Below, in pieces: positions 4,751-62,220 of a DNA stretch of 64,000 nt. A program made the position numbers and the translations under genes. The notes below the pieces were generated by a model. The model saw only the letters and a list, made by a program, of their open reading frames with translations, was not told the DNA's origin and made no database searches. Location: assembly GCF_003019035.1 (NCBI RefSeq), contig NZ_CP027447.1. One strand, written 5' to 3'. Every line of letters starts with the position of its first letter. The stretch's first letter is position 1. The stretch is from Escherichia coli. Lineage in GTDB: Bacteria > Pseudomonadota > Gammaproteobacteria > Enterobacterales > Enterobacteriaceae.

Positions 4751-4778
4751 AAAATGCGTAAAAAAGCACCTTTTCAGG
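4751..4778 (+). terminator. Intrinsic terminator after cysK
   Basis: aaaaagcacc-ttttca-ggtgcttttt hairpin followed by T-run, 14 bp after the cysK stop. Confidence 0.6.
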
Positions 4779-5120
4779 TGCTTTTTTGTGGCCTGCTTCA
4801 AACTTTCGCCCCTCCTGGCATTGATTCAGCCTGTCGGAACTGGTATTTAACCAGACTAATTATTTTGATGCGCGAAATTAATCGTTACAGGAAAAGCCAA
4901 AGCTGAATCGATTTTATGATTTGGTTCAATTCTTCCTTTAGCGGCATAATGTTTAATGACGTACGAAACGTCAGCGGTCAACACCCGCCAGCAATGGACT
5001 GTATTGCGCTCTTCGTGCGTCGCGTCTGTTAAAAACTGGCGCTAACAATACAGGCTAAAGTCGAACCGCCAGGCTAGACTTTAGTTCCACAACACTAAAC
5101 CTATAAGTTGGGGAAATACA

Positions 5121-7714: not shown

Positions 7715-7745
7715 AAAAATGGCGCCCATCGGCGCCATTTTTTTA
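7715..7745. terminator. Bidirectional intrinsic terminator between convergent crr and pdxK
   Basis: aaaaatggcgcc-catc-ggcgccattttt perfect hairpin flanked by A-run upstream and T-run downstream; overlaps the pdxK stop. Confidence 0.65.
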
Positions 7746-12077: not shown

Positions 12078-12910
12078 TAATGACCTACCACACGCCGACC
12101 AAAGCGACTTTGCAGAGTGTTAATTGAGAACAGCAGCAGCAGGGATGCCGCGAGGATCACCGAAGCAATCGCGCTCGCCGCCGGGTAATCAAACTCCTGT
12201 AAGCGAACAAAAATCATCAGCGACGTCACTTCCGTCTTCCAGGCAATGTTCCCGGCGATGAAAATCACCGCGCCAAATTCACCAAGACTACGGGTAAACG
12301 ACAGCGCCACGCCCGCCACCAGCGCCGGAGAAAGTTCCGGCAGCACCACTTTGCAGAAACTCTGCCAGCGCGTTGCACCAAGCGTTTCCGCCGCTTCTTC
12401 ATATTCCGGGCCTAACTCTTCCAGCACCGGCTGCACGGTACGCACCACAAACGGAATGCTGGTAAAGGCCATCGCCACCGCGATCCCCAGCCAGGTATAG
12501 GTGACTTTGATATCAAACTTCGCCAGCCATTCACCGTAAAAACCGTTCACGGAAAAGAGCGAAGCCAGCGTTAAACCGGCGACTGCCGTTGGCAGCGCAA
12601 AGGGTAAATCCATCAGCGCATCAAGCAGCGTGCGGCCCGGAAAGCGATAGCGGGTTAAGATCCACGCCATCAGCAGACCGAAAACGCCGTTAAAAATCGA
12701 CGCGACAAACGCCGACAGCAGCGTCACTTTATAGGCTGCGACCACCTGCGGGTTGGTGATCACCTCCCAGTACTGCGCCCAGCTCATCTCAGAGAGCTGC
12801 ATCACCAGCGCGGAGAGCGGCAGCAGCAAAATCAGGCACACAAACAGCAGACTGGTGCCGAGGCTTAAGGTAAAGCCCGGCAGCACGCGTCTTGATGAAA
12901 CTGCAAACAT
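12077..12910 (-). CDS. cysU: Sulfate/thiosulfate ABC transporter permease CysU (CysT)
   Basis: 277-aa polytopic [27 protein letters not shown]...; 1-bp overlaps with cysP and cysW. Confidence 0.9.
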   Translation of the reverse strand: MFAVSSRRVLPGFTLSLGTSLLFVCLILLLPLSALVMQLSEMSWAQYWEVITNPQVVAAYKVTLLSAFVASIFNGVFGLLMAWILTRYRFPGRTLLDALMDLPFALPTAVAGLTLASLFSVNGFYGEWLAKFDIKVTYTWLGIAVAMAFTSIPFVVRTVQPVLEELGPEYEEAAETLGATRWQSFCKVVLPELSPALVAGVALSFTRSLGEFGAVIFIAGNIAWKTEVTSLMIFVRLQEFDYPAASAIASVILAASLLLLFSINTLQSRFGRRVVGH

Positions 12911-19712: not shown

Positions 19713-20696
<984 letters not shown>

Positions 20697-23288: not shown

Positions 23289-24191
<903 letters not shown>

Positions 24192-24196
24192 CTCCC

Positions 24197-25249
24197 TCAC
24201 CCCCATTCCCGCATCCGCTGATGCAGCGTCAGTGACGGCTTCTCGGCAAACAGTTGCTGATAATCCGTGGCGAATTGCCCCAGATGCCAGAATCCCCACT
24301 GCATGGCGGCGTCTTTTACCGTCATACTTTGCGACCACGGGCTTATCAGTTCGCGGCGCACGGCGTTCAGGCGAATGCGTTTCAGCCACGCGTTTGGGCC
24401 AATGCCTAAAATAGCGTGAAAAGCGTTTTGTAGCGTGCGGCGGCTGACATGTAGTTGATTACACAAGTCCAGCACCGTCACCGGTTCGGACATGTTTTCC
24501 AGCACATATTCACGGGCGCGGGAAAGCAATCGACGGTAACTCTGATGACTGATGCTTTCCGCCGTCACCATTGGCTGCGCTTCTTCCAGCATCGCCCCCA
24601 TCGCCATTAGCAAGTTATCCCCCAGCACTTTTCGCACTGCAGGCTGATGGAGATTTTCCGGGTTCTCGCAAAACGTCGCCAGCGCCTGTTGGACAAAGCC
24701 CCACAGAGCGGCTTTATGCTGCTCTTTCACTTCCAGCGCCGACTGGCTACGCAGCATATGTAATACCCGATCCGGATTATGCAAAAAGTTAGCCTGACGA
24801 GTGATGACATCTTCAGAAAGCACTACGCCCAGGATCGTGTAATCGTCCGGCGTACTTAATTCAAACTCGGTTCCACCCGGGCGCGTCGCAATTTCTGCGC
24901 TTCCCAGACATTGCGAACCGATAAATCCCTGCTCACCGCGCGTCGCCGGAATGCCAAACCAGAACGAGTTCGGCCAGACCAGGCACGACTGACGCAGCGC
25001 CAGACCAGTGTATTCACGAAAAACCTGAATATCATCGAGTAGAATTTCCGTAAATTCACCATGAAACTTGCCCGGATGCAGCTGATCGTAAATCTGCTGC
25101 CAGGCGGTAATTGTCAAAGCATGTTCATAGACATCCGTTGTCTGTCGTTGATGAACATTATCCACTTCGACCTTCGGCGTGAGCTTCAGGTTTTCGGGTA
25201 AGGGTTCATGATAAAGATGGTGCAAATTGGCTGTACGGGTCTTTTTCAT
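24197..25249 (-). CDS. eutR: AraC-family ethanolamine operon regulator EutR
   Basis: 350-aa [26 protein letters not shown]...; C-terminal AraC HTH; last gene of the eut cluster. Confidence 0.9.
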
Positions 25250-25294
25250 GATGTTAATGCCGGGTGTTGTAGGACACCCGGCACCTCCGACAGG

Positions 25295-25795
25295 TTAATG
25301 GGGCTTGAGACGATAACGACTACTGCGTTTACGTAACGTCCCGGCAGAAAAGAGCTGTTCGAGCGCATTTCTGGCTTTTTCCAGCGGCCAGCCAAAGTGG
25401 GCTGCCACTTCTCCTGCCGTCATTCCCTGACGTACTGATGTTAACAGCGCCAACAACTCGTCAGCAGATTCCGCGACGATAACTGGCGCGTCGGGTTCCT
25501 TTACGGGTTGCTTCGGCTGGCGGTTAAAGCCAGTAACCAGCCACTGGGTGTCATCGTCTGGCCGACCGATCTCCTTACGGCTGATGACACGCCCGGTACG
25601 CATCGCGGCAGCACAACCTGCGTCCAGCGCCGCACGACACGCCGCCAGATCGCCTTCCACCACCAGCGTTAGGCGACCAGGGTCAAGCACTTCATGGCTG
25701 AGCAGACGAACGTTAGCTGCTTTGAGCATGGCATCCGCTGCATCTATCGCGGCGACCATGCCGTCAACTTCCAGCAATCCCAGTGCATTGATCAT
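25295..25795 (-). CDS. eutK: BMC shell protein EutK
   Basis: ORF track 25295..25801(-) trimmed to MINALGLLEVDGMVAAIDAADAMLKAANV (BMC domain) plus C-terminal extension; 166 aa. Confidence 0.85.
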   Translation of the reverse strand: MINALGLLEVDGMVAAIDAADAMLKAANVRLLSHEVLDPGRLTLVVEGDLAACRAALDAGCAAAMRTGRVISRKEIGRPDDDTQWLVTGFNRQPKQPVKEPDAPVIVAESADELLALLTSVRQGMTAGEVAAHFGWPLEKARNALEQLFSAGTLRKRSSRYRLKPH

Positions 25796-25807
25796 CGGCA
25801 ACCTCCG

Positions 25808-26467
25808 TTACGCACGCTGGATTGGATTACGCGCGATTTCCAGCACTGCATCGGTAAAGGCGTTACAGGCTGCTTTACACGCGGCCTGGCTACCGGTTAA
25901 AAATGCTGCCGAGTAGTTGGTTTCAGACGGTGGCGGGACATAGGTCACCAGCTGCACGTCGGCAGATTTCAACGCTGCATCAATGCCGTAGGTCGCTTCC
26001 AGCGGCGGTGCCACCAGATACGCCATCGGATCGCCAGGCGTGATCCCGGCGGTTGATGAGAGATAAGAACCGGTACGCGAAACGACATGTGCCAGGAAGG
26101 CTGTATTTTCTGCGTCATTAGCCCACTGGAAAGCAGCGCCATTTTCAATATGCGCAACCATCGCATCCAGACCAGCACGCACTTCCGCCGGGTTTGGCCC
26201 ACCCAGCATAATCAGCACTTCACCGGCAGTCGGTGACGGGCCGTGTGCGGCTCCCGCATACAGCGAGCGGCCATACACCACTTCCACCATCGCCTGCTTG
26301 GTCGCTTCGTCAGCCGCAATGTAGGTGACGTCATCTGAATCAGCAGAAATCAGCCCGAGGCTACGAATATGCGGCGGCAATTTCAGTTCACGTGCAAATT
26401 CGGCGTTAACGGAGGCAATCACCCGCATGGCGGTTACCGACGGTCGAATCAAATCTAAAGCTGGCAT
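25808..26467 (-). CDS. eutL: BMC shell protein EutL (tandem BMC domain)
   Basis: 219-aa [44 protein letters not shown]... Confidence 0.9.
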
Positions 26468-27384: not shown

Positions 27385-28746
27385 TCAGAAGAACAGTGAC
27401 GGATCGCCCGCCCGTTTGGTCAGGCGACCGTTTGCCATAATGCCCATGCTTTCCAGCCAGCGTTCAAACTCCGGTGACGGGCGCAGATTCAGTAACTGAC
27501 GCACAGTGGCAGTGTCGTGGAATGCGGTGGTCTGATAGTTGAGCATGATGTCATCGCCCAGCGGCATCCCCATGATGTAGTTGCAGCCTGCGGTGGCGAG
27601 CAGGATCATCAGGTTTTCGTTGAGGTTCTGGTCAGCGTCAGCGTGGTTGGTGTAGCAGCAGTCACAGCCCATAGAGATGCCACTCAGCTTGCCCATAAAG
27701 TGATCTTCTAAGCCCGCACGGATAATCTGGCGGTCGTTGTAGAGATACTCCGGCCCAATAAAGCCGACCACGGTGTTGACGATAAACGGATCGTAATGAC
27801 GCGCCAGCCCGTAGTTACGCGCTTCCATCGTCACCTGGTCTGCGCCGAAGTTAGCGCCAGCAGACAGCGCCGAACCTTGTCCGGTTTCGAAGTAGAGGCA
27901 GTTTTCCCCGGCGATACGGTTAAACTCTGCACCCACTGCGCGCGCTTCGTCGAGCATCGCCAGCTCCACGCCAAACTCTTTCAGCCCTTTTTCGCTGCCG
28001 CAAATACTCTGGAAAATCAGCCCGCCCGGTGCGCCGCGACGAATCGCTTCGATCTGGGTGGTGACGTGCGCCAGTACGCAGCCCTGAGTTGGGATGTTGA
28101 ATTTGTCGATCACGCCATAGATGGTATCCAACACGCGGCTTAAGTTTTCCACGTCGTCAGTCACCGGGTTAACGCCGATCACCGCATCGCCCACCCCGAA
28201 GGAAAGCCCTTCGTAGATTTGCGCGGCGATACTTTGCACATCGTCACGGGTATCGTTTGGCTGCAAGCGGGCGCTAAAGGTGCCCGGAATACCGATGGTG
28301 GTATTGGCCTTTTTGATCACCGGCATTTTCTTCGCGCCGTAGATCAGGTCCGCGTTGGAGCAAATCTTCGCTACCGCCGCTACCACTTCCGAGGTCAGCC
28401 CTTTGCGGGTAAAGGCAATGTCGTCCACGCTGGTTTCATCGCTCAGCACATACTCACGCAGTTCGCTGATGCTCCAGTTTTTAATCTGGTTGTAGGCCGT
28501 TTCGTTAACGTCGTCCTGAATCAGCCGCGTCACGCAGTCATCTTCATAGGCAATCACCGGATTATTGCGGATGTCCGCTACGGTCATTTCCGACAACACC
28601 TGCTTTGCCGCCACGCGCTCCTGTGAGCTTGCCGCAGCAACGCCCGCCAGCACATCCCCCGAACGCAGTTCGTTGGCTTTAGCCAGCACCTCTTTTACAT
28701 CCTTAAACTGATATACATTGCCGAACAATGTGGTCTTTAGTTTCAT
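27385..28746 (-). CDS. eutB: Ethanolamine ammonia-lyase large subunit
   Basis: 453-aa ORF MKLKTTLFGNVYQFKDVKEVLAKANELRSGDVLAGVAAASSQERVAAKQV... Confidence 0.95.
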   Translation of the reverse strand: MKLKTTLFGNVYQFKDVKEVLAKANELRSGDVLAGVAAASSQERVAAKQVLSEMTVADIRNNPVIAYEDDCVTRLIQDDVNETAYNQIKNWSISELREYVLSDETSVDDIAFTRKGLTSEVVAAVAKICSNADLIYGAKKMPVIKKANTTIGIPGTFSARLQPNDTRDDVQSIAAQIYEGLSFGVGDAVIGVNPVTDDVENLSRVLDTIYGVIDKFNIPTQGCVLAHVTTQIEAIRRGAPGGLIFQSICGSEKGLKEFGVELAMLDEARAVGAEFNRIAGENCLYFETGQGSALSAGANFGADQVTMEARNYGLARHYDPFIVNTVVGFIGPEYLYNDRQIIRAGLEDHFMGKLSGISMGCDCCYTNHADADQNLNENLMILLATAGCNYIMGMPLGDDIMLNYQTTAFHDTATVRQLLNLRPSPEFERWLESMGIMANGRLTKRAGDPSLFF

Positions 28747-28757
28747 AAGTCGTTCCC

Positions 28758-30161
28758 TCAGGAAGGAAATGCGAGTGATTTCACCGTCACCGGCACAACC
28801 GATCCGCCAAAAAGAGGCGTACCAATGTCGATATAGTCCCCCGCGCGGACAATCACTTCGTCAATGACTGCCAACGGGAGTTGTTGTAGCTGTGGGCGCA
28901 ACAACATGCCCAGAGCTTTACCAAAGTCCTGCCCGGCCACCACCAGCAGGGGATGCGGATTCGGAAAACGCGCGACGAAATCGACCAACGCGTTGATGAC
29001 CGTCAGTACCGCGGCGTAACGCACAGGCAGCGAGGCGGGAAGCGCCAGCACGTACGCGTCAGTTTTAGGATCAAGATCCAGCTGAATCAGCGCCTGTTGC
29101 CAGGCACTCACCAGATCCTTTTCATCAATTGGGATCGCCACCGGCAAGTTGCGCAGCGGCAGTTGTACGCCCTCCAGCCAGATTGTGCTGCCAGAGAGCG
29201 AAAGGGTATGTGCACCCGCGCCAATCACCGTGGCGCGCACGGTTTGCGCCGGAAACTGCACGTTCATCTCACGCAGGCGCGGATGGTCATGCAGCGCCGT
29301 TGCCAGAAGCGGGCCAATATCGGCAAAACAGAACGGGTCGGCGGGCTGGTGGCGATAACATTCGCCCACGCCGCCAGAAAGCGTAATGATTTCGGGCGTA
29401 ACACCTGCGGGCAGCAAACCGGTTTGCATTAATGCCTGCGCGAGCGGCGAAAGCGTTCCGTCAATCACTTCGACAATCAGCTCTGCCATCCGCCGGGTAA
29501 CCTGCACCAGCTGCGCGCCGGTCAGCGAACGGGCGTCGGTGCCTGCGCCGAAGCACTCATCCACAATCATCTGCCCCGGTTTATGAGCGTAAACCACGCG
29601 CCCCTGGCTGTCGGTTTCCAGCAGGCGACCGCCGACATTGAGGCAGGCGGTGCCGCTGATTTTTCCGGCATCGAACAGGGCGTAGTTCGCGGTGCCACCG
29701 CCGATATCGATATTCAGGACCCGACACAGCCGTTGTTCAGAAAGGGTTTGCGCCCCGGCACCGTGACCGGCGATCACGGATTCGAGATGCGGTCCAGCGC
29801 TGGCGACGACAAAATCGCCCAGCGACTGGGAGAGCGTCATCACCGCCGGGCGAGCGTTGCGGGTTTTCGCGCTTTCACCGGTGATGATGATGGCACCAGA
29901 ATCAACGCTTTCCGGCGCAATGCCCGCAGCCTGATATTGCTCGAGGATTAAGGTTTTCAGTTCCGCTTCTTTTAAACCACCCTGTTTATCGACAGGGGTA
30001 AAGAACACCGGGCTTTGCCAGCTAATTTCGCGTTTGATGAATTCGTAGCGCGGCACCTGCGACACCGCCGCACGGTTAACCAGCTCCAGGTGGGAGAAAA
30101 TCACCTGGGTGGTGGTGGTGCCGATATCGATACCGACGCTCAGTAGCTGGCGAGTGTTCAC
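28758..30161 (-). CDS. eutA: Ethanolamine ammonia-lyase reactivase EutA
   Basis: 467-aa ORF MNTRQLLSVGIDIGTTTTQVIFSHL...; starts 11 bp after eutB with no intervening prophage. Confidence 0.9.
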   Translation of the reverse strand: MNTRQLLSVGIDIGTTTTQVIFSHLELVNRAAVSQVPRYEFIKREISWQSPVFFTPVDKQGGLKEAELKTLILEQYQAAGIAPESVDSGAIIITGESAKTRNARPAVMTLSQSLGDFVVASAGPHLESVIAGHGAGAQTLSEQRLCRVLNIDIGGGTANYALFDAGKISGTACLNVGGRLLETDSQGRVVYAHKPGQMIVDECFGAGTDARSLTGAQLVQVTRRMAELIVEVIDGTLSPLAQALMQTGLLPAGVTPEIITLSGGVGECYRHQPADPFCFADIGPLLATALHDHPRLREMNVQFPAQTVRATVIGAGAHTLSLSGSTIWLEGVQLPLRNLPVAIPIDEKDLVSAWQQALIQLDLDPKTDAYVLALPASLPVRYAAVLTVINALVDFVARFPNPHPLLVVAGQDFGKALGMLLRPQLQQLPLAVIDEVIVRAGDYIDIGTPLFGGSVVPVTVKSLAFPS

Positions 30162-41389: not shown

Positions 41390-41417
41390 CGCTTACCCTG
41401 AATATTCAGGGTAAGCG
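41390..41417. terminator. Perfect 28-bp palindrome between the accessory cassette and maeB (bidirectional terminator candidate)
   Basis: cgcttaccctgaata/tattcagggtaagcg: 13-bp arms with a 2-nt loop, between convergent ORF 40485..41387(+) and maeB(-). Confidence 0.55.
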
Positions 41418-56053: not shown

Positions 56054-56064
56054 GCAATAAAAAA

Positions 56065-56092
56065 GGCGACATGCTAATGTGTCGCCTTTTTC
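56065..56092 (+). terminator. Intrinsic terminator after acrD
   Basis: ggcgaca-tgctaatg-tgtcgcc hairpin followed by ttttt, 12 bp after the acrD stop. Confidence 0.65.
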
Positions 56093-62053: not shown

Positions 62054-62220
62054 AGATACCTCAACAATATATTCATTATAGAAATGATCGTAGGTGGTTC
62101 AGAGGAAGATTACCACAGGAAAGCGGGATGAAATGGCGGAGGAATGAGCGTTCAATGCACATCTTCCGAGAGCGGTTGTCTTGCCGTGCCAGCTGCACGG
62201 CAAGATGATGAACAGAAAAA

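Follow-up and report, generated by a model that had tools for sequence, protein, structure and literature searches.

A conserved mRNA hairpin between the Shine-Dalgarno sequence and the start codon of eutR as a candidate split ribosome-binding site

The division of a ribosome-binding site by an RNA hairpin is a known but rarely documented arrangement, described mainly in phage T4, rather than a new principle. At the junction between T4 genes 26 and 25, a hairpin shortens the distance between the Shine-Dalgarno (SD) sequence and the AUG from 27 to 11 nt, and a hairpin in gene 38 shortens it from 22 to 5 nt; mutations that destabilise these split sites lower translation (PMC3014915). Non-contiguous translation initiation regions have also been described for thrS and rpmE of E. 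coli (PMC7297116). The junction between eutK and eutR shares with T4 genes 25 and 38 a remote SD, a stable hairpin between the SD and the AUG, and a spacing that folding restores; with gene 25 it further shares a position between two cistrons and a distribution in which the element is found in a group of close relatives and is absent from more distant ones (PMC3014915). The eutR element departs from its T4 counterparts in that it lies on the chromosome, within a metabolic operon, and is known here from sequence comparison. Its hairpin is also larger (24-28 nt, and up to ~86 nt) and more stable, predates the loss of the proximal SD, and is paired with a second helix predicted to bury the AUG. 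The thrS and rpmE regions resemble eutR in being chromosomal and in holding, inside the ribosome-binding region, a stable hairpin that is tolerated or required by the 30S subunit (PMC7297116). In those genes, however, the hairpin serves as an operator to which the encoded protein binds and the SD stays near the AUG, whereas no ligand is indicated for the hairpin of eutR, unlike these feedback operators.

Within the window, as we term the whole 64-kb stretch of E. coli DNA analysed, eutK (25295-25801, minus strand) lies upstream and eutR (24197-25249, minus strand) downstream of a 45-nt spacer (25250-25294, minus strand). A sequence-only reading had placed a perfect 9-bp stem-loop in this spacer, at 25259-25282, and we find it exactly there, slightly longer than had been described. 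On the plus strand of the window, these positions read GCCGGGTGT-TGTAGG-ACACCCGGC; in mRNA sense, the spacer and its borders read UAA-CCUGUC-GGAGG-U-(GCCGGGUGU-CCUACA-ACACCCGGC)-AUUAACAUC-AUG, with the hairpin in parentheses. All features of the junction are on the minus strand. Downstream of the eutK stop codon (UAA, 25295-25297), from which the stem is 12 nt distant, come a CCUGUC block (25289-25294), with conservation of at least 90% across the core enteric group, and then the sequence GGAGG (25284-25288), the sole SD-like element in the spacer. The hairpin itself (25258-25283) comprises ten Watson-Crick pairs around the loop CCUACA (25268-25273), and is followed by an A/U-rich 3' linker of 9 nt, AUUAACAUC (25250-25258), which runs from the 9-bp core to the AUG and is without an SD. 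Full-length alignment of EutR homologues begins at this AUG (25247-25249). The hairpin thus stands between the only SD of eutR and its start codon, which is the key point that the sequence-only reading had missed.

The core stem is GC-rich, with G-C in seven of its nine pairs. The tenth Watson-Crick pair, beyond this core, joins 25283 to 25258, the first A of the 3' linker, and two weak G.U pairs on the mRNA strand can lengthen the hairpin to 25256-25285. Folding of the 24-mer yields -17.0 kcal/mol (z = -5.15), a value that none of 200 shuffled sequences equalled, and the base-pair probability of the stem in the predicted fold is ~1.0. Perfect hairpins of at least 9 bp occur at seven places in the 64-kb window, accounting for 15 overlapping rows as compared to 1.9 expected from shuffles; perfect hairpins are hence enriched here, and the one between eutK and eutR is among the real ones. 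The remaining six are found at 4761-4786, 7716-7741, 20632-20654, 41391-41416, 56063-56088 and 62180-62204, of which those at 4761 and 7716 have A/T runs on their flanks and look like bidirectional terminators. The arms of the eutK-eutR hairpin occur once in the window, and across 5,389 E. coli genomes the hairpin is unannotated and single-copy (a median of one place per genome). This copy number, together with the lack of any further copy or covariance-model match in the window, rules out a REP element or other dispersed palindromic repeat. A search of Rfam 15 assigned the hairpin to no family, the best scores being 12-16 bits against gathering thresholds of 37-50 (E at least 1.4).

Two features of the surrounding genes were noted in passing. 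The mechanically assigned start of the eutK ORF is a TTG at 25801, and an ATG two codons downstream (25795) is better placed with respect to an upstream GGAGG and is probably the true start. The eutB and eutA genes adjoin (27385-30161) with no CPZ-55 prophage between them, indicating that the eut operon is intact and that the strain is not K-12-like.

The 251-nt region around the hairpin is at least 99% identical in 5,388 of 5,426 complete E. coli genomes, and because variation within the species is this limited we gathered eutR loci from other species: 80 loci, drawn from about 400 with one genome per species, and 10 more from metagenomic or NCBI contigs. With the exception of Buttiauxella, every sequence in which eutR directly follows eutK folds individually into a hairpin at this position. 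Almost no variation is seen at the stem base, (G)CCGG/CCGG(C), while the inner stem and loop vary between genera. The inner stem is GUGU/ACAC in E. coli, GCGUCC/GGGCGU in Salmonella, GGGCUUC/GAAGCUU in Citrobacter, GAACGC/GCGCUC in the Klebsiella oxytoca group and AAGUGC/GCGCUU in Pseudocitrobacter; in a base-justified analysis, some 14 differing stem sequences are all paired. Predicted stabilities across the taxa range from -17 to -27 kcal/mol, and reach about -50 kcal/mol in the Intestinirhabdus locus L028. The hairpin is therefore strongly conserved in the eut loci of Salmonella and E. coli, where the sequence-only reading had proposed to look, and the poor conservation that it had named as an argument against the element is clearly not what the relatives display.

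Covariation in the stem was assessed at two levels. In an ungapped MAFFT subset of 13 junctions that share the same geometry, 97.2% of stem cells pair, compared to 28-43% when the partners are slid out of register; double changes are found at four pairs, and none of 500 shuffles attained the covariation score. This alignment then served to build a covariance model, with which we aligned 30 distinct eutK-eutR junctions spanning Escherichia, Salmonella, Citrobacter, Klebsiella and relatives. Here too 97.2% of stem cells pair, against 30-51% with slid partners; double compensatory changes are present in 7 of 11 pairs (46 cells), and the covariation score of 0.438, as compared to 0.208 in shuffles, was reached by none of 500 shuffles. 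The 30-junction figures are generous, given that this alignment was fitted to the structure and that the sequences are related, such that the shuffle statistics overstate independence; neither the ungapped subset nor the per-sequence folds depend on this fitting. Alignment with MAFFT followed by RNAalifold recovered only the outer seven pairs, because the length of the stem interior differs between genera. The model has a single match in the 64-kb window, at 25247-25297 on the minus strand (46.7 bits, E = 3e-7). All of its strong matches (E at or below 4e-5) are eutK-eutR junctions on the eut strand, and the remainder are five weak matches (E 0.09-0.8) that echo these palindromes on the antisense strand. 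The stems contain 36 G.U pairs and seven A.C mismatches, so that pairing stands at 97% when read on the sense strand and at 88% on the antisense strand; this excess of G.U over A.C indicates selection on the sense RNA. Taken together, the comparisons identify the hairpin as a selected structure of the sense eut mRNA, as opposed to a DNA palindrome or a product of chance.

We next consider where the SD lies relative to this structure, with SD strength taken as the energy of the duplex formed with the 3' end of 16S rRNA. In E. coli, the GGAGG scores -10.8 kcal/mol, and the strongest site within the 20 nt preceding the AUG scores -1.7 kcal/mol. The same pattern extends throughout a core group of 16 scored junctions, from Escherichia, Salmonella, Citrobacter, Klebsiella, Pseudocitrobacter, Phytobacter, Intestinirhabdus and close relatives: none of the 16 has an SD in the last 20 nt before the AUG (best values, -0.9 to -3.4 kcal/mol), and the site directly 5' of the stem scores -9.5 to -10.8 kcal/mol, or -6.6 kcal/mol for two GGAGA variants. 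A proximal SD of -5.9 to -11.3 kcal/mol is present at 12 of the 15 other eut gene starts in the window. When 1,235 candidate ORF starts in the window were screened for a strong SD, a tight hairpin and a start codon in this order, eutR proved to be the only genuine gene start with the arrangement; a second match, at 12727, was rejected as an internal GTG within a 277-aa transporter ORF.

The geometry on either side of the hairpin is held nearly constant across taxa. Of 32 distinct junctions, 31 place a GGAG(G/A) 0-1 nt away from the outermost pair of the stem (the other, L085, has it directly at the stem), and 8-10 nt separate the 3' side of the stem from the AUG. Linear SD-AUG distances are 34-38 nt in most relatives and ~90 nt in L028; with the hairpin excised, the spacing is 8-11 nt across the taxa, and mostly 10. 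The flanking geometry is thus kept as the hairpin changes in content and in size, from 24 nt up to ~86 nt. The largest form belongs to Intestinirhabdus alba (L028:2401-2503), in which an insertion within the stem has enlarged the hairpin to ~86 nt (-50 kcal/mol); this expansion has altered neither the GGAGG nor the stem base nor the 10-nt 3' linker. The CCUGUC block upstream of the SD is likewise fixed, and we found no pairing partner or motif that accounts for its conservation across genera. A helix between CUGUCGG, in the 5' flank and overlapping the SD, and eutR codons 4-7 was predicted by RNAfold in E. coli and Salmonella, and was dropped as not conserved, since Klebsiella and several Citrobacter alter the coding partner without compensation as CCUGUC stays fixed.

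A distant SD, the lack of a proximal one, a stable hairpin that would restore the spacing, and conservation are all found at eutR, which on sequence grounds thus has every computable property of a T4-type split ribosome-binding site. We consider it an even prospect that the hairpin makes the eutR initiation region such a non-contiguous site, in the manner of T4 gene 25. Folding of the stem would bring its single-stranded flanks together and reduce the distance between GGAGG and AUG in E. coli from 34 nt to 10 nt, a spacing usable by a 30S subunit; the GGAGG would then be the SD for eutR, and folding would be needed for its use. Since 10 nt plus the width of the helix end falls at the long end of workable spacing, the site would be weak. 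Folding predictions for E. coli also place the last two G residues of GGAGG mostly in G.U pairs with the 3' linker. The 12 nt between stop codon and stem imply that a ribosome terminating on eutK should reach the hairpin without melting it; such a ribosome would sit on the SD, which would favour re-initiation. The hairpin may, in addition, shield the upstream mRNA from 3' exonucleases. Other observations also weigh against the split site. Initiation in the absence of an SD is common among E. coli genes and could be supported here by the A/U-rich linker; moreover, the hairpin is also present in lineages where the proximal SD is normal (L088, L085, L089, Yokenella and Entomohabitans).

Prediction with the coding sequence included reveals a second, weaker helix in which the AUG is probably held. 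Its 5' arm, UCAUGA.AAAGA (25240-25251, minus strand), includes the AUG and codons 2-3, and its 3' arm, UCUUU.UCAUGA (25206-25217, minus strand), corresponds to eutR codons 11-15; the predicted probability that the AUG is unpaired is ~0 in most taxa of the core group. The helix is absent from the Klebsiella pneumoniae-like locus L084, from L085 and from Yokenella. Both arms are otherwise invariant and so show no covariation. Inspection of codon usage offers a different line of evidence: across genera, codons 11-15 have a mean codon entropy of 0.07 bits, compared to 0.84 bits for codons 16-70. None of the 60 five-codon windows within the first 70 codons is more conserved, and 36 of 37 sequences encode Leu12 as CTT. 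These frozen synonymous sites lend indirect support to selection on the RNA of the second helix, which we infer to form in vivo. A Dam methylation site (GATC) directly overlaps the eutR start, as GATCATG, in most loci outside Escherichia, with Salmonella, Citrobacter and Klebsiella among them (for example L081:1497-1503); the corresponding sequence in E. coli is CATCATG, from which GATC is absent.

Ribosome standby sites, such as that of tisB, provide an accessible upstream landing site beside a stable structure when the start itself is sequestered. The eutR junction is similar in having an upstream landing site next to a stable structure and a start codon predicted to be sequestered, so that the exposed distal SD, given a buried AUG, may double as a landing or standby site. 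It differs from tisB in that the upstream site is a true SD match and not an unstructured stretch bound by S1.

The net effect of this arrangement would be to hold EutR translation at a low and fixed level, relative to the shell and enzyme genes, per operon transcript. EutR is the master activator of ethanolamine utilisation and is encoded last in the operon that it activates, such that its rate of synthesis sets the gain of the positive feedback; in EHEC, Salmonella and Citrobacter, virulence genes are under its control as well (PMC8565329). If true, a split site with a buried AUG would be a built-in governor of EutR output per operon transcript, and eutR would add a chromosomal and evolutionarily traceable example to the split sites described. 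As a small and mutable element, the junction also offers a practical handle for tuning expression of the eut microcompartment in engineered strains. In the literature that we searched, we found no probing, toeprint, reporter, end-mapping, transcription start site (TSS) or promoter data specific to eutK-eutR, and no description of the hairpin, including in the paper on post-transcriptional control of eutR by MavR, an sRNA that acts on the 3' part of the eutR coding sequence (PMC8565329).

Relatives of differing EutR divergence show how a split site can arise. Junctions that lack the hairpin (Buttiauxella, Hafnia, L086, Brenneria, Dickeya, Pectobacterium and Lonsdalea) have proximal SDs of -5.4 to -11.9 kcal/mol, and Morganella-type loci, also without a hairpin, have weaker ones, down to -3.9 kcal/mol. 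In lineages of intermediate divergence, the hairpin is accompanied by a proximal SD only (L088 and Entomohabitans) or by an SD on both sides (Yokenella, L085 and L089); in L090, L083, L087 and the core group, it is accompanied by a distal SD only. No hairpin-bearing junction is without an SD beside the hairpin. The series from proximal SD, to both sides, to distal SD only points to a hairpin that is older than the split arrangement. Because the hairpin is present alongside a normal proximal SD, bridging is not the original or the only reason for its retention.

The main rival to the split site is a role in mRNA decay, in which the stem would block 3'-to-5' exonucleases such as PNPase and RNase II and the displaced SD would be secondary. 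We regard this explanation as possible, though rather doubtful, when taken as the primary function. Attack would come from an unprotected operon 3' end or from RNase E cuts within eutR, and the 16 structural-gene cistrons would outlive the eutR cistron, so that far less of the regulator would be produced. The hairpin occurs irrespective of how the SD is arranged, including in lineages with a normal proximal SD, and its stems are very stable, far beyond what bridging would need. It also sits exactly at the boundary between the structural genes and the regulator, downstream of the cistrons to be stabilised. The convergent stop codons of eutR and hemF are 5 nt apart (24189-24199), and on the eut strand there is no terminator-like site for 1.4 kb past eutR, which makes it probable that the 3' end of the operon is unprotected. 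The eutR mRNA is reported to be an RNase E substrate and very short-lived, with a half-life of ~0.25-1 min measured from plasmid constructs (PMC8565329).

Precedent for a decay barrier differs from eutR in several respects. Intercistronic hairpins without U-tracts are established as decay barriers in the malE-malF REP and in the puf operon, and these, like the eutR hairpin, are GC-rich and separate cistrons of very different expression. Unlike REP sequences, the eutR hairpin is single-copy in each genome and has no other covariance-model match in the window. Stabiliser hairpins, furthermore, have no reason to carry an SD at a fixed distance in their flank. A decay barrier also leaves unexplained why GGAG always abuts the stem on its 5' side, how the core group could lose its proximal SD and why 8-10 nt are kept between stem and AUG, and Buttiauxella manages without the hairpin altogether. 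Such a barrier is compatible with, and not exclusive of, a split ribosome-binding site. In an E. coli dataset of RNA 3' ends from conditions without eut induction, the only entry for this region is a site antisense to eutR, at MG1655 coordinate 2554640 on the plus strand; we take the file that lists it to be a Rho-inhibitor comparison.

An unlikely alternative is that the hairpin is a tolerated relic, a palindrome that inserted into the ancestral eutR ribosome-binding site and was kept because it is harmless. The A/U-rich linker would then support SD-free initiation of eutR, or ribosomes that have completed eutK would re-initiate, leaving the GGAGG unused. The composition of the linker agrees with this account, as do the SD-like repeats on both flanks of the hairpin in the dual-SD loci: in L085:1453-1503 the arrangement is AGGAG-hairpin-AGGAG, and Yokenella and L089 are similar (L089:1150-1203 and L030:2454-2503). 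Such repeats look like the target-site duplication that a palindrome would leave on inserting into the ancestral eutR SD. The hairpin-less Buttiauxella, whose spacer is 18-22 nt, has a single AAGGAG 7 nt from the AUG. The stems of L083 and L087 (GCCGGATG...CATCCGGC) have what we take to be a resemblance to the base of REP elements. A neutral palindrome, however, would neither hold 97% pairing through ~14 stem sequences with double changes nor keep G.U pairs on one strand only. It would also not be expected to retain GGAG(G/A) beside the stem in 31 of 32 junctions as loops and stem interiors turn over. The element is, in addition, no dispersed repeat, given its single copy in 5,389 genomes.

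Action during transcription is still less probable. The sequence-only reading had held that the stem-loop is not a canonical intrinsic terminator, and this judgement stands: there is no U-run on either strand, and a scan for terminator-like sites returned none here. Rho-independent terminators share with the eutR hairpin a GC-rich perfect stem and a short loop, and we rejected this class on account of the sequence that follows the stem, AUUAACAUC, which has no U-tract. The hairpin could instead restrict the passage of RNA polymerase from eutK into eutR, as a pause site or as a weak terminator or attenuator that depends on a factor. Its GC-rich stem and its position between two genes would suit this role, which we nonetheless consider quite improbable: the 3' flank, AUUAACAUC / UUAAAAGAUC, lacks a U-tract, the adjacent SD is left unexplained, and eutR is reported to be expressed by read-through from promoter P1, with autoinduction needed for full induction (PMC5821096). 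The earlier suggestion that the element bears on eutR expression from operon transcripts is probably correct; of the two mechanisms offered for it, modulation of read-through is disfavoured by these same observations, and a eutR-proximal promoter fares no better, as discussed below.

There is a slim chance that the hairpin is the target of the orphan C-terminal helix-turn-helix domain of the shell protein EutK, a domain whose function has been described as unknown (PMC5821096). EutK made from the same mRNA would bind the hairpin through its GCCGG/CCGGC base together with the adjacent SD, and would thereby tune EutR translation to the amount of shell protein, or tether the eut mRNA to the nascent microcompartment. 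Recognition of a specific sequence would be in keeping with the four invariant pairs at the stem base and with the CCUGUC block; set against this, Buttiauxella has a full-length EutK beside eutR and no hairpin.

Least probable of all is a DNA-level element, either part of a eutR-proximal promoter P2 or an operator for a dimeric DNA-binding protein, for although the palindrome is perfect, with conserved outer half-sites (G)CCGG...CCGG(C), and a weak constitutive P2 has been reported before eutR (PMC5821096), the spacer has no -35/-10 matches, the distance between half-sites varies from 16 to ~78 bp, the interior covaries so as to preserve pairing, including G.U pairs whose counterparts on the opposite strand would be C.A mismatches, and the candidate constitutive TSS in S. 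Typhimurium lies inside eutL with none listed in eutK or the spacer.

The promoter question was pursued beyond the spacer itself. We took a sigma-70 promoter to require -35 and -10 hexamers spaced by 16-18 bp and a TSS just downstream, and rejected P2 in the spacer as having neither the hexamers nor a mapped start. No sigma-70-like site of at least 9/12 matches occurs in or around the spacer, and none of at least 8/12 is conserved in the last 400 nt of eutK across 23 species; together with G.U pairs that occur on the sense strand only and so point to RNA, these results speak against the eutR-proximal promoter proposed in the sequence-only reading. We also discarded a 5'-terminal stabilising hairpin on a P2 transcript that starts in the spacer, with TAACCT as its -10 element, as there is no conserved -35/-10 pair and the Salmonella TSS table counters a start at this point. 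That table, for S. Typhimurium 4/74, lists a single TSS between eutR and eutH; it falls within eutL, at coordinate 2563886 on the minus strand, and has similar usage in broth (40.6) and in macrophages (43.3). By estimate from the geometry of L081, it lies ~1 kb upstream of the eutR AUG, roughly at 26240-26310 in the window, and is a good candidate for the weak constitutive P2; no consensus promoter is seen at this TSS in the Salmonella locus or in the window. If P2 does start there, transcripts from both P1 and P2 would carry the same eutK-eutR junction.
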